From Escherichia phage vB_Eco_OMNI12, in sequence record OL362041.1: DNA of 64,000 nucleotides. One strand, written 5' to 3'. Positions 16,220-21,703 of the stretch are shown here, piece after piece. The position numbers and the translations under genes were made by a program. The notes beneath the pieces are model-generated. The model was not told the origin of the DNA. It worked only from the letters and a program-made list of their open reading frames with translations, and made no database searches. Each line of letters starts with the position of its first letter. Within the stretch, counting starts at the first letter, position 1.

Positions 16220-17559
<1,340 letters not shown>

Positions 17560-17582
17560 TATATCATCCTCAGCAATTTATT

Positions 17583-17614
17583 TTATAATACCATAACAAG
17601 CTGAGAAAGTAAAC
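17583..17614 (-). promoter_or_regulatory. T4-type early promoter upstream of the 186-aa ORF and dam
   Basis: Minus strand GTTTAC ... TGGTATTATAAAA. Confidence 0.5.
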
Positions 17615-17658
17615 AAATTTATGAAATTTGTGATAAATATTAATTTAAAGGAGGACAT

Positions 17659-17859
17659 ATGGCACAAAAATTAATGGCACTTGTTAATGCCATCAAAGGT
17701 AATAAGAAACGTATAGCTTTTACTATTTCTGCTATGGTAGGAATTTTACTCTGGAACTTTATTTTATCACCAATTACAATTGCGCATGGTGTTAATATTC
17801 CAGTAGTTACTCTTGATACATTCGTAGATCTAGCATTTGCTTTAGTTGGGTTAATTTAA
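17659..17859 (+). CDS. Small hydrophobic membrane protein (66 aa), plus strand
   Basis: ATG preceded by AAAGGAGGA; predicted transmembrane segments; convergent with gene 61 and overlapping its stop. Confidence 0.45.
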   Translation: MAQKLMALVNAIKGNKKRIAFTISAMVGILLWNFILSPITIAHGVNIPVVTLDTFVDLAFALVGLI

Positions 17860-18884
17860 ATCTTGGCATATTTAGATAACCGCATTTTAGCCATTAACCC
17901 CTGGGCAATATTATTTTTCATATATTCCATAATTTGTTCAGGGGTTGCACCTTCCTTTCTAATCATATCATTAACATCTTTTGATTTCCAGGGAGATTTA
18001 TCCCAAAACATAACCCTTTCTCCTGCATCAACTAATTTAGTCATTCGCTTGATAGTGTCAGGGTGACGAGGTTCATTATCTAAAACCCACACTCGTCTAT
18101 CTTTAAATGGAACAACTTCTAGGTCTAATTGACCACCCGTAATAGCTATACCATTTTCAATAAAAAGTGAATCTATAGGTCCTTCTAGAACATATACATC
18201 ACCATCTTTAACTCGTTCGACTCCATATATTTTTGTTGCCTCAGGATAAGCTTTGATGGTGATATATTTTTGAGGAGCATCTTTCTTTAATGCACGTCCT
18301 TGAAAAGACTCAGCTTTTCCATTAGCATTATAAATTGGAATAACAAGACGAGGCTCAGAAATTTCCTTTTTGTATGTTCCCGGTGCTATGCTATTAACTA
18401 ATTTAGGCCATTCGGTTGTAAACCAAAGATATTTCCATTTATCCTTTGGAATACAACGAGCTTTTACATATTTTATAATTGGATGGTCTTCCGCCAATTT
18501 ATCTAATCTGATGCATGACGGAAGAGATTTAATTATTTTCTTCTCAGGTTGTTTAGGAAGTTCTTTAGGTTTTTCTACTGGACGACTTTTACCTTTTTCT
18601 TTTCTTATTTCAAAGATATACTCACGATATAAATCAGGTTCAAACTCCTTTAAATATATTCCGATTGGTGCATGATAGTTACAGTTATAACAATGAATAT
18701 TTCCTTCATTATTATCGCCATAATACCATCCACGGGCTTTATTTTGGTCGGTTTTTGAATCTCCACAAACTGGGCATCTAAACCGTAATTTAAAAGTTGA
18801 ACTATTATTTACTTGTGTGAATTTAGGTAAATGAGCTAATGCACGGTATGCAAACTCATTATCAATCCAAGGTATTGATGACAT
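17856..18884 (-). CDS. 61: DNA primase gp61 (zinc-binding)
   Basis: 342 aa as T4 gp61; CPVCGDS...CYNC zinc motif and Toprim region. Confidence 0.9.
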   Translation of the reverse strand: MSSIPWIDNEFAYRALAHLPKFTQVNNSSTFKLRFRCPVCGDSKTDQNKARGWYYGDNNEGNIHCYNCNYHAPIGIYLKEFEPDLYREYIFEIRKEKGKSRPVEKPKELPKQPEKKIIKSLPSCIRLDKLAEDHPIIKYVKARCIPKDKWKYLWFTTEWPKLVNSIAPGTYKKEISEPRLVIPIYNANGKAESFQGRALKKDAPQKYITIKAYPEATKIYGVERVKDGDVYVLEGPIDSLFIENGIAITGGQLDLEVVPFKDRRVWVLDNEPRHPDTIKRMTKLVDAGERVMFWDKSPWKSKDVNDMIRKEGATPEQIMEYMKNNIAQGLMAKMRLSKYAKI

Positions 18885-18886
18885 TT

Positions 18887-19051
18887 TTACTCTTCTTTTT
18901 CTTTAGATTCCTCTTTTTTCTTTTTAGGAATCTGTTCAGGACCTTTATTTACTACAGCACCTGATATTGTTCCAGTAGAGATATTTTCAGGATTACCACC
19001 TGAATCTCCAGCAACCATATCTTCTTTGATAAATTCTTTATATGTTTTCAT
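18887..19051 (-). CDS. Small protein (54 aa), 61.1 position
   Basis: Below track cutoff; ATG at 19051, stop abuts gene 61 start. Confidence 0.4.
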   Translation of the reverse strand: MKTYKEFIKEDMVAGDSGGNPENISTGTISGAVVNKGPEQIPKKKKEESKEKEE

Positions 19052-19052
19052 A

Positions 19053-19409
19053 TTAACCTCTATTCATAAAAGCATTAAAAATTTGGTCATCAATAGATGG
19101 AATAGCAACCTTTTCGGCATCATTTAGCAAATCATTAATTTCATCAGATAGCATAACACATGTGCCTTTATTTCCTGTAATTGTTACTGCACAATTACGA
19201 ACGTTTTCTTTATCAAATTTTAGGTTAATATTTTCGTAGTGAAAATCCTTTAATGCCGAATATATCTTTAAAATGAAATTGTCTTTTACTACAATAAACC
19301 CAACCTCACTATTAAAACGTGGTTCATGGAAACTGTAATAAACCTTTTCATCTATAAAATCGTATGAAATTTTTTCCATTTTTAAATATGAAAATTCAGA
19401 ACTATGCAT
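19053..19409 (-). CDS. Hypothetical protein (118 aa), 61.2 position
   Basis: ORF between 61.1-like ORF and sp; T4 61.2 is the anti-DarTG factor AdfA (positional inference only). Confidence 0.45.
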   Translation of the reverse strand: MHSSEFSYLKMEKISYDFIDEKVYYSFHEPRFNSEVGFIVVKDNFILKIYSALKDFHYENINLKFDKENVRNCAVTITGNKGTCVMLSDEINDLLNDAEKVAIPSIDDQIFNAFMNRG

Positions 19410-19421
19410 ACTAACCTCTAA

Positions 19422-19715
19422 TTACTCACCTACCACTTCAGCGATGATATTTTTGTTATTAAAGTTTTTATCGCAATACAGAACATAATTATACTGCATT
19501 ACACCACCAGACTTAAGCTGTTTTTGCACTTCAGCTTTCATTTCAGGACGATCGCGCTCAACGATATTCATAATATCTGCTTCAATTTGGGTTTCAACCT
19601 CAGTCTGATCCGCAGTCATAGACCATTCGCACAAATCTTTATCATAACCTGCCATAGCAGGCTGAGCAGCACAAGAAGCTAAAGCAAAAATTGTGGCAAA
19701 GATAAATTTTTTCAT
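19422..19715 (-). CDS. sp: Spackle periplasmic protein (97 aa)
   Basis: 97 aa with signal peptide; position between 61 and 41 as T4 sp. Confidence 0.75.
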   Translation of the reverse strand: MKKFIFATIFALASCAAQPAMAGYDKDLCEWSMTADQTEVETQIEADIMNIVERDRPEMKAEVQKQLKSGGVMQYNYVLYCDKNFNNKNIIAEVVGE

Positions 19716-19742
19716 GATAATCTCCTCAGTAGTTTATGTTTA

Positions 19743-19773
19743 TATAGTATCTCAATTTCCAACAAAAGTAAAC
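19743..19773 (-). promoter_or_regulatory. T4-type early promoter upstream of sp
   Basis: Minus strand GTTTAC ... TACTAT. Confidence 0.45.
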
Positions 19774-19775
19774 AA

Positions 19776-20033
19776 CTATTTTAAAACTTTTGCATAATCA
19801 CATGTTACAAACTGTTTCTCTAGCTTGACGATTTTACGAAAGTATCTTTTGCATTGGCGAATCTGCCGCTTCGTAGGGCGAACAGCAAACTTAATAAATT
19901 CCACTCGACCAAATGGAGGACTTTCTTCTGCTGGAATATCTAGCACCAATTCCCACGTATCTGCAATAAGTGCTTTGAATTGTGTATTTTTCCTAACGTT
20001 ATACGGAGTAGGTTTAAATAAAACAATATGCAT
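19776..20033 (-). CDS. Hypothetical protein (85 aa from internal ATG), 61.4 position
   Basis: Track ORF overlaps dmd; the internal Met (MHIVLFK...) removes the overlap; possibly TifA-like, by position only. Confidence 0.4.
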   Translation of the reverse strand: MHIVLFKPTPYNVRKNTQFKALIADTWELVLDIPAEESPPFGRVEFIKFAVRPTKRQIRQCKRYFRKIVKLEKQFVTCDYAKVLK

Positions 20034-20034
20034 A

Positions 20035-20217
20035 TTATCCTCGGCAATCCACTTCACACACTTTCTTGTCATCAATGAAAGCTTTAACTAATGCTTTATT
20101 AACTTCAGCATACTGAGTAGTAGCCCATTGAACGTCATCTTTCATCATTGTGGTTTCTTTAGTAAACATGCTTTCATTCTTAAACCACCCCATAAAAACT
20201 ACCTTTACCAATTCCAT
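20035..20217 (-). CDS. dmd: Dmd antitoxin (60 aa)
   Basis: 60 aa, MELVKVVFMGWF...; position next to gene 41; GAGGAG SD. Confidence 0.75.
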   Translation of the reverse strand: MELVKVVFMGWFKNESMFTKETTMMKDDVQWATTQYAEVNKALVKAFIDDKKVCEVDCRG

Positions 20218-20245
20218 AACAATCTCCTCATTTAACCAACAAGAC

Positions 20246-20276
20246 TACTATACCATAGTCTTGTCAGCTTGTAAAC
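20246..20276 (-). promoter_or_regulatory. T4-type early promoter upstream of dmd
   Basis: Minus strand GTTTAC ... TGGTATAGTAG; -35 overlaps gene 41 stop. Confidence 0.5.
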
Positions 20277-21703
20277 TAAAATTTTAATTCATTTGCCAAA
20301 GCATCTAACTGAGCTCGAGTCGATTCGTTTCTTTGATAGCGATTCTGCTCAGCTTGTATCTGTTGTGAACCTGCTACCTCACTCACTTCAGTTGGAGTAG
20401 AATCTTGTTCAATTTCTACCCATTTCTGATTTCCTTTTTGAACACCCATCAAAAACTTATTCCATTTATTCTTATCACCATATCGTGATTTGATTTGCTT
20501 AATAAGTTGTTGTTCAGCAGCTGCTAACTCCTCGGTTTCAATGACCGCAAGCATAAAATCAGCTGTTGCTGGAAGACCGGCAGATTCTGCAATATCGCTC
20601 ATGTTAACATCAGAAGAATCCCAAGCTTGTTTACCAACCTGTGCTGCAGTCCAAAGAACAGTTTCGGTTTCAACAGCAAGAGCACGTAATTCCTCTGCAA
20701 TGGCTTTAACAGTTGTGTAACTATTTTCTGAGTAAACTCTAATGCGGCAAGATTTACAAATACCTAGATAGTCGACAATAATGATTGTTGGAACAAAATT
20801 CTTCTTGAGCTTTAATTCGTTTAAAAGCGATCGAAATGTATTAGCATCTGCTCCACCAGTAGGATACTGTTTAACTATTAAACGACCGAGAGTAGATTTC
20901 TCGCGCCATTTTTCCATTTTTCCTTTATACTCAGCGTAAGAAATATGCCCGTCATCAATGTCATCAAGAGAAACATCAAGCATATTAGCATCAATACGTT
21001 TAGCACAGACTTCTTCTGCCATTTCCATGGAGATATAAAGAACGTTATGACCAAGCTGTAAATAATCCGCTGCTAATGAACAAAGTCCTAATGATTTACC
21101 AACGTTAACGCCAGCCATTAAAACGTTCAGTGTTCCAGTCTCAGCTCCGCCTTTAGTAATTTTGTTTAGAATTCTGAGTTTAAATGGAACCTTACGAGCT
21201 TTATTCATATAAGATAGCCAACGCGCTTCATAGTCATCCATCCAATCATGACCAACGTAGCTATCAAATGAAATTGATAATGCTTGGCGCATGATGTCAG
21301 GAATAGCACCTACATCTGGCATTTTCTTATTTCGTTTTTCCGGAGGAAGCTCAGCATTAGTTTGAATTTCGATTATTTTAGACGTAGCATTAAACATCGC
21401 CCTTTGCTGAACATATTTTTCTGTTTCTTTTACTAACCAACTGTGGTCTTCTGGAGAATCGGCTAGTTTTGAAATAAGTGTTTTTACACCAGAATATTCT
21501 GTTTCAGTAAATGAACTATTTTCTAATGCAACATTTAACGCATTAATAGATGGAACGCTATGATACTCATTAACATGAGATTTAATTAATTTGAACGTAT
21601 TTTTAGCTGGACCACTTTCAAAATATTCTGAATCCATATATGGCCAAACTTTTGAAAAATAAGCTTGATCAAATATGAGATGAGAAAGAATAATTTCTAC
21701 CAC
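20276..21703 (-). CDS. 41: Replicative DNA helicase gp41 (DnaB-like)
   Basis: 475 aa, Walker A GVNVGKS; matches T4 gp41 size and position. Confidence 0.9.
   Translation of the reverse strand: MVEIILSHLIFDQAYFSKVWPYMDSEYFESGPAKNTFKLIKSHVNEYHSVPSINALNVALENSSFTETEYSGVKTLISKLADSPEDHSWLVKETEKYVQQRAMFNATSKIIEIQTNAELPPEKRNKKMPDVGAIPDIMRQALSISFDSYVGHDWMDDYEARWLSYMNKARKVPFKLRILNKITKGGAETGTLNVLMAGVNVGKSLGLCSLAADYLQLGHNVLYISMEMAEEVCAKRIDANMLDVSLDDIDDGHISYAEYKGKMEKWREKSTLGRLIVKQYPTGGADANTFRSLLNELKLKKNFVPTIIIVDYLGICKSCRIRVYSENSYTTVKAIAEELRALAVETETVLWTAAQVGKQAWDSSDVNMSDIAESAGLPATADFMLAVIETEELAAAEQQLIKQIKSRYGDKNKWNKFLMGVQKGNQKWVEIEQDSTPTEVSEVAGSQQIQAEQNRYQRNESTRAQLDALANELKF

Follow-up and report, generated by a model that had tools for sequence, protein, structure and literature searches.

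Between the DNA primase gene 61 and the replicative helicase gene 41 of Escherichia phage vB_Eco_OMNI12 lies a compact group of small genes. Which genes these are, whether they all act against host defense or competing phages, and whether the one at the 61.2 position, where T4 carries adfA, encodes AdfA as well, was asked here by computational analysis of a stretch of 64,000 nucleotides (nt) from this genome (record OL362041.1, hereafter the window). The region is very probably the T2-type form of the accessory genes that are clustered between genes 41 and 61 in T-even phages. The 118-amino acid (aa) protein encoded at the 61.2 position is a paralog within the AdfA family, homologous to the C-terminal domain only, and not an ortholog of T4 AdfA.

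A T2-type gene cluster between genes 61 and 41

The window belongs to a Tequatrovirus (T4-like) genome. Its positions 18700-20400 are 100% identical in DNA to Escherichia phages vB_EcoM_G29, G4500, GADU22 and KK4, and ~466 further phage records match this region at 95-99% DNA identity. According to the list of open reading frames (ORFs), the interval between genes 61 and 41 is filled by exactly five tightly packed ORFs on the minus strand. All five proteins strongly match family profiles of Pfam or PHROG and, because their DNA is also found in identical form in sequenced relatives, the five ORFs are considered real genes and not chance ORFs. Each ATG in the islet is preceded by a GAGG Shine-Dalgarno motif. 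The genes are separated by 1-2 nt at the 61/61.1, 61.1/118-aa and tifA/dmd junctions, by 12 nt between the 118-aa gene and sp, and by 60 nt between sp and tifA. An earlier note on this DNA, made from the sequence alone, had proposed a five-gene islet at this place, and its limits, 18887-20217, indeed run exactly from the stop of 61.1 to the start of dmd.

Position, gene order and strand of the cluster are the same as in T4 (annotated record NC_000866), in which 61.2 (adfA), sp, 61.4 (tifA) and 61.5 (dmd) have been proposed to form an anti-toxin-antitoxin (anti-TA) island. That the 61-41 region is an 'anti-TA island' has been explicitly stated by Srikant, Guegler and Laub (eLife 2022; PMC9391042), and T4 adfA corresponds to gene 61.2 (PMC9391042). 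The cluster is already described in the literature, and the picture given in the earlier note, which was largely right, had already been published. Four of the five window proteins are 94-99% identical to their T4 counterparts. The difference lies in the adfA slot, which holds the 118-aa paralog in the window and the 208-aa AdfA in T4; the locus is 270 bp shorter in the window than in T4. In T2 (AP018813), the architecture of the 61-41 interval is identical to that of the window, with TifA, Dmd and Spackle (Sp) matching at 100%, gp61.1 at 98% and the short paralog at 112/118 residues.

The 61-41 interval is hyperplastic among T4-like phages: eleven genes were counted in RB69 and eleven, in a different order, in the Gaprivervirus phage vB_EcoM_VR25.

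Dmd, TifA and Spackle

Functions could be assigned to Dmd, TifA and Sp because these proteins are 98-100% identical to proteins that were tested in T4 and T2. Dmd matches the Pfam family Dmd (PF17587) over residues 1-60 with an E-value of 1.8e-45, and all 60 of its 60 residues are the same in T2. It also matches chain PDB 5HY3_B over its full length (E-value 1e-36). Dmd also inhibits LsoA, as in the 5HY3 complex. Dmd of the window would bind and block the ribonuclease (RNase) toxins RnlA and LsoA. For RnlA, direct inhibition by Dmd has been reported (PMC9391042).

The 85-aa ORF at the 61.4 position is TifA itself, because of its identities with the T4 and T2 proteins (Table 1). Its ATG lies 1 nt past the dmd stop; the mechanical ORF list gives this ORF as a 99-aa, TTG-extended version that overlaps dmd. 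TifA matches the Pfam family DUF7279 (PF23945) with an E-value of 2.3e-20, and its central basic cluster RPTKRQIRQCKRYFRK is kept and is present in RB69 too. Sequences in the PDB gave no match to TifA at E-values up to 10. T4 gene 61.4, since renamed tifA, encodes a protein that inhibits the ToxN endoribonuclease of toxIN; the TifA alleles of T2, T4, T6 and RB69 were all active, and T2 TifA rescued ToxN toxicity and restored plaquing (PMC9391042). The basic TifA protein of the window would likewise bind and block the ToxN RNase.

Upstream of dmd-tifA, a promoter-like site, TTTACA-17-TATAGT, begins directly past the gene 41 stop (20275-20247). Three sigma-70-type matches of 10 out of 12 consensus positions were found in 17500-21000, and only the one upstream of dmd carries an upstream TG. 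In T4, dmd and tifA are co-transcribed from a promoter just past gene 41, to which the arrangement in the window can be likened. The promoter-like site agrees with the T4 early promoter that was reported to drive dmd-61.4 (PMC9391042). The islet genes would be read on the minus strand from this site, whose activity is suggested by its motif and the literature. Just past the gene 41 stop, at 20240-20263, two 8-bp arms (CAAGACTA/TAGTCTTG) separated by an 8-nt loop form an inverted repeat, within which the promoter-like site has its -10 hexamer TATAGT. The repeat is not a canonical terminator, because no T-run follows, and it might affect read-through transcripts from gene 41 or access to the promoter.

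Sp was identified by the Pfam family T4_Spackle (PF25676; E-value 1.3e-44), is 100% identical to T2 Sp, and matches the Spackle chains of PDB 6X6O, 6XC0 and 6XC1, with 6X6O covered over the full length (E-value 8e-62). Codons 1-22 (19650-19715) encode the signal peptide MKKFIFATIFALASCAAQPAMA. The deposited chain 7CN6, with 75 residues, equals residues 23-97 of Sp, which fits the loss of a 22-residue signal peptide. Spackle forms a complex with gp5 and, in the periplasm, inhibits the tail lysozyme gp5 that superinfecting phages bring (PMC7677548). In the window phage, Sp would be secreted to the periplasm and would bind the lysozyme domain of the gp5 tail spike of later T-even phages, resulting in superinfection exclusion. 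The spacer between tifA and sp holds a promoter-like motif, GTTTAC ... TACTAT, and a GAGGAG Shine-Dalgarno motif for sp; the consensus scan found only a 9-of-12 promoter site in this spacer.

For these three genes the earlier note had named Dmd and a 97-aa Spackle with signal peptide, and both identifications hold on profile, sequence and structure matches. The 85-aa ORF had been called 'possibly TifA-like' there, and this assignment has become firmer than it was proposed.

In RB69, imm and imm.1, two genes for superinfection immunity, are located between sp and tifA (locus L004, 3512-4190), which places both exclusion functions next to each other.

The 118-aa protein corresponds to the C-terminal half of AdfA

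T4 gp61.2 (AdfA) consists of 208 aa, and in BLAST the 118-aa protein of the window aligned to its residues 109-208 only, with 35% identity; the N-terminal ~105 residues of AdfA are absent. In agreement with this alignment, the Pfam family AdfA (PF23813) was matched with 34.4 bits at a cut-off of 27 (E-value 1.9e-8), and this match spans only profile positions 113-211 of 211. Profile comparison with hhalign related the 118-aa protein to the C-terminal half of AdfA with a probability of 98.3% (E-value 1.3e-14), and the result for the N-terminal half was not significant (probability 16%). The two proteins also fall into separate PHROG families: the 118-aa protein matches PHROG 4122 (E-value 2.5e-72), AdfA itself belongs to PHROG 3781. 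The laboratory that defined AdfA required homologs to cover >75% of the full length (PMC11257639), and the full-length AdfA architecture (~208-216 aa, with both halves) is not found in the 118-aa protein. What is shared with AdfA of T4 and RB69 (gp61.2) is a homologous C-terminal domain, an identical C-terminal tail and the genomic slot. The window protein differs from AdfA by the missing N-terminal half, by Asn or Cys in the place of a His residue, by its own PHROG family and by the occurrence of both genes in tandem.

In alignments, the 118-aa and 85-aa proteins thus show similarity to T4 gp61.2 and TifA, respectively. Of the assignment of the 118-aa ORF to AdfA, which had been made by position, the 61.2 position is correct; a T4-type AdfA it is not, as only the C-terminal half is present, at 35% identity and without the His.

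The protein is 95% identical to that of T2, and five of the six substitutions fall inside a variable patch at residues 96-104. Over codons 1-95, the proportion of non-synonymous differences between window and T2 (pN, 0.004) is far below that of synonymous differences (pS, 0.113; pN/pS ~0.04), which indicates that the 118-aa gene is under purifying selection. The tail is unchanged. The patch itself (19095-19122, codons 96-104), just ahead of the tail, is hypervariable, with a pN of 0.29 and a pS of 0.33, and coincides with a low-confidence linker in the structural model.

In an AlphaFold2 model of the 118-aa protein, which has a predicted local distance difference test (pLDDT) score of 82.8, five beta-strands precede three helices, and a short sixth strand lies between helices one and two. 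The tail is predicted as a helix (residues 106-115) with low confidence, the two 10-residue blocks over 101-118 having a mean pLDDT of 58 and 63. No solved relative was found among PDB sequences (best E-value 0.94). When the model was compared with the PDB using Foldseek, an archaeal single-stranded DNA-binding protein and acetate-kinase subdomains were obtained; with a best E-value of 0.03 and a template modeling (TM) score of 0.40, these hits are uninformative. Foldseek against BFVD returned family members only, and a model of AdfA (pLDDT 70) gave nothing below an E-value of 0.07 in the PDB.

A HMMER search of 1.84 billion representatives retrieved only three clusters of the short type (118, 119 and 125 aa) and AdfA. 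The only match that did not look phage-like (P0024, 459 aa, 7 stretches) consists of a low-complexity tandem repeat and was discarded as spurious. An internal duplication of AdfA was considered as well: the predicted order of strands and helices is similar in both halves, and BLAST of the N-terminal against the C-terminal half gave an E-value of 0.003, but hhalign gave a probability of only 3-16%. A duplication within AdfA to which the short protein is related is therefore suggestive only. A second AdfA-like locus or a further tail motif was not found elsewhere in the 64-kb window.

A shared tail links several protein types and three locus architectures

Four body types from three genera end in the same invariant peptide, (S/A)(I/V)DDQIFNAFM(N/K)R(G/D). 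This peptide is carried by the long AdfA of T4 and of RB69, by the 118/119-aa short type and by a 145-aa protein of the Gaprivervirus phage VR25. The DNA that encodes the tail is identical between T4 adfA and the 118-aa gene of the window and forms a direct DNA repeat in tandem loci. Between lineages the tail codons differ at synonymous sites, which points to a constraint on the peptide and not on the DNA.

In VR25, genes for a 145-aa and a 119-aa protein that share the tail are arranged in tandem downstream of sp (locus L007, 2068-3089). Both proteins end in (S/A)(I/V)DDQIFNAFMKR(G/D). The 119-aa protein shares 46-50% identity with the short paralog of the window, and the body of the 145-aa protein is a further type (PHROG 8539). 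A gene annotated as similar to T4 gp61.4 (tifA-like) is located between the short paralog and 61.1 in this phage.

Three architectures of the locus could be distinguished. Only the short gene is present in the window and T2, only the long adfA in T4 and T6, and both genes in phage vB_EcoM_FN and many others, in the order sp - adfA (210 aa) - short gene (118 aa) - 61.1. Approximately 292 phage records carry the short gene at an identity of at least 90%, and ~158 records carry adfA and the short gene in tandem; from these numbers, roughly 130 records would have only the short gene, like the window. The long AdfA type is found in ~487 phage records. Since the short gene stands beside a full-length adfA in ~158 records, it is a paralog of adfA and not an ortholog.

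A four-way DNA alignment showed clean indels among the three architectures. What is missing from T4 is precisely the segment that separates the two copies of a ~45-bp tail-coding repeat. In the window and T2 the adfA body is absent, and there remains the 12-nt spacer TTAGAGGTTAGT, which matches the adfA 3' end ATAGAGGTTAAT. This spacer (19410-19421) aligns to the junction of adfA and the short gene in the tandem locus of vB_EcoM_FN and supplies the Shine-Dalgarno motif of the short gene. In sequence it looks like a scar, made of the last codons and the stop of a deleted adfA. Both single-gene states may have arisen by deletion from the tandem state, and the window locus would then be derived from a locus with adfA and the short gene by deletion of adfA.

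gp61.1 is spread more widely than the other islet proteins

The fifth islet protein, gp61.1, is Gly/Ser-rich with a Lys/Glu-rich C-terminus. It belongs to PHROG 1823 (E-value 1.9e-32), a family of unknown function, has no match in Pfam, and nothing was retrieved when the literature was searched for 'gp61.1'. Its core, EDMVAGDSGG..GAVVNKGPEQIP, is kept in RB69, where gp61.1 is a 92-aa version with an N-terminal extension. The stop codon of 61.1 lies 2 nt ahead of the gene 61 ATG.

With tblastn, gp61.1 was matched in 1364 phage records, among them phages that infect Klebsiella, Acinetobacter, Aeromonas and Enterobacter, compared to 903 records for Sp, 800 for Dmd, 675 for TifA, 487 for the long AdfA and 336 for the short paralog. 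This distribution is more readily explained by a conserved role next to the primase gene than by host-specific counter-defense, and gp61.1 is probably not a defense gene. The description of the whole islet as one of anti-defense and exclusion, as given in the earlier note, therefore holds for Dmd, TifA and Sp and probably not for gp61.1, which occurs in phages of many host genera.

Possible functions of the 118-aa protein

AdfA binds DarT1, and residue 164 decides whether DarT1 is neutralized: the variant RB69 AdfA(R164H), with His at the position of T4 His165, binds DarT1 and restores growth of RB69 (PMC11257639). Deletion of adfA from T4 gives no DarTG1 phenotype, even in the absence of adfN, and the authors propose that T4 AdfA targets another DarT homolog (PMC11257639). 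T2 is counted by the same laboratory as naturally lacking adfA (PMC11257639).

We infer that the 118-aa protein could bind a host toxin stoichiometrically, one different from the DarT1 that was tested. In a broader and tentative proposal, a small multigene family of modular toxin inhibitors may occupy the slot past sp, with AdfA (~210 aa), the 118-aa type, a 145-aa type and others as members; the variable, beta-rich body would pick the toxin, DarT-like or other, and the invariant helix would provide a shared contact; the tail-coding repeat would serve as a recombination site at which genes are added, deleted or swapped between co-infecting phages. The 118-aa protein, which is predicted to keep only the C-terminal beta-sheet/helix domain and the tail SIDDQIFNAFMNRG, would owe its specificity to the variable body and the shared contact to the conserved tail, and would inhibit a host defense toxin.

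Several points weigh against this view of the islet and its 118-aa gene. On DarTG1 cells, plaquing of a T2 mutant without adfN drops by ~4 logs (PMC11257639). T2 has the 95%-identical short gene, yet is DarTG1-sensitive without adfN, which indicates that the short gene is not protective against this DarT1 at native expression. From these T2 data, any link of the short protein to DarT is by homology only. In addition, the DarT1-enabling His corresponds in the 118-aa protein to Asn72 (in MAFFT and hhalign alignments) or Cys73 (in BLAST), and the predicted fold has no informative structural relatives, so that nothing independent backs a toxin-binding role. Since gp61.1 has a far broader distribution than its four islet neighbors, the islet is not uniform in function. 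The deletion scenario is based on short sequences at the junctions, and adfA may instead have been inserted in the tandem lineages.

Alternatively, the AdfA family, with the 118-aa protein, and gp61.1 could act outside counter-defense as accessory factors of the flanking replication genes, such as partners of the primase or helicase, with the tail docking on a phage protein and not on a host toxin. gp61.1 is kept across Straboviridae of many host genera, and the position of its stop codon makes coupled translation with gene 61 possible. An invariant tail on varying bodies is what would be expected for a conserved phage partner, and the deletion of T4 adfA without a DarTG1 phenotype fits here as well. 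However, the binding of AdfA(R164H) to DarT1 and the restored growth of RB69 argue for a toxin as the partner, the AdfA and short families are confined to coliphage-type T-evens, and their presence or absence varies among near-identical phages, as is typical of accessory host-range genes. This explanation is therefore regarded as unlikely.

Even less probable is that the 118-aa ORF is a functional AdfA in a shorter form, which neutralizes DarT1 like T4 AdfA. The Pfam AdfA score is above the gathering threshold, the slot between sp and 61.1 and the C-terminal tail are the same, and the specificity residue 164 falls into the retained domain. However, only the C-terminal part of the profile is matched, the N-terminal half is absent, and Asn72/Cys73 stand at the His164/165 position. 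Moreover, T2 with its 95%-identical copy is classed as adfA-less and becomes DarTG1-sensitive once adfN alone is deleted, and the ~158 records with a full-length adfA alongside identify the short gene as a paralog. An anti-DarTG1 role of the 118-aa protein is unlikely.

A decaying, functionless remnant of adfA, suggested by the short length and the adfA 3'-end scar directly upstream, is highly improbable and close to refuted, since the ORF has its own ATG and GAGG motif, is intact at exactly 118 aa in ~290 records, shows a pN/pS of ~0.04 over codons 1-95 and a confident fold prediction, stands as a separate gene beside an intact adfA in ~158 records, and has distant 119-aa and 125-aa relatives in other lineages, the 119-aa type in VR25.

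The single lead from this locus that merits pursuit is the AdfA family, with its shared tail and its tandemly shuffled genes. The short paralog and its tail bear on why the presence of adfA fails to correlate with DarTG1 resistance, and on which other targets the family has. As a whole, the locus is a textbook case of T-even phages stacking small inhibitors against RnlAB/LsoAB, ToxIN, DarTG and competing phages. In annotations, tifA is the appropriate name for the ORF at the 61.4 position, and the name adfA should not be given to the ORF at the 61.2 position in T2-type phages.

Feature positions and neighboring genes

The features of the islet and its flanks are collected in Table 1. In an Rfam scan of 17500-21000 at E-values up to 1 no RNA families were found, and NCBIfam gave no matches for any of the islet proteins.

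Table 1. Features of the gene 61-gene 41 interval in the window, in order of position.
Feature	Positions	Strand	Remarks
Gene 61, DNA primase, downstream flank of the islet	17856..18884	-	342 aa; 339/342 identical to T4 gp61
Gene 61.1, 54 aa	18887..19051	-	51/54 identical to T4 gp61.1; PHROG 1823
Short AdfA-family paralog, 118 aa, 61.2 position	19053..19409	-	PHROG 4122; partial AdfA homology
Invariant C-terminal tail, codons 105-118, SIDDQIFNAFMNRG	19056..19097	-	DNA the same in T4 adfA
12-nt spacer TTAGAGGTTAGT	19410..19421	-	11/12 identical to T4 adfA 3' end ATAGAGGTTAAT
sp (gene 61.3), Spackle, 97 aa	19422..19715	-	Pfam T4_Spackle; 96/97 identical to T4 Sp
tifA-sp intergenic spacer	19716..19775	-	Promoter-like motif and Shine-Dalgarno motif, read from sequence
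tifA (gene 61.4), 85 aa from ATG	19776..20033	-	83/85 identical to T4 TifA; 85/85 to T2 TifA
dmd (gene 61.5), 60 aa	20035..20217	-	Pfam Dmd; 59/60 identical to T4 Dmd
Promoter-like site TTTACA-17-TATAGT	20247..20275	-	10-of-12 match with upstream TG
Gene 41, replicative helicase, upstream flank of the islet	20276..21703	-	474/475 identical to T4 gp41

Two further ORFs were observed on the far side of gene 61. A 186-aa ORF on the minus strand (16999-17559) abuts the dam methylase gene immediately upstream. It is not present in T4 and is found in T2 and G29, whose annotations split it into two coding sequences. It matches PHROG 8706 (unknown function) and shows weak, sub-threshold Pfam matches to the restriction endonucleases DpnII (GATC-specific; E-value 0.0045) and BanI (E-value 0.009). 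Together with Dam it might form a phage pair of methylase and GATC nuclease.

A 66-aa ORF on the plus strand (17659-17859; PHROG 2024, E-value 1.5e-30) is convergent with gene 61, and their 3' ends overlap by 4 nt. By position, not by sequence, an ORF is annotated at the equivalent place in T2, T6, RB69, FN and VR25. Inside this ORF, a terminator-like hairpin is located on the minus strand at 17696-17671.

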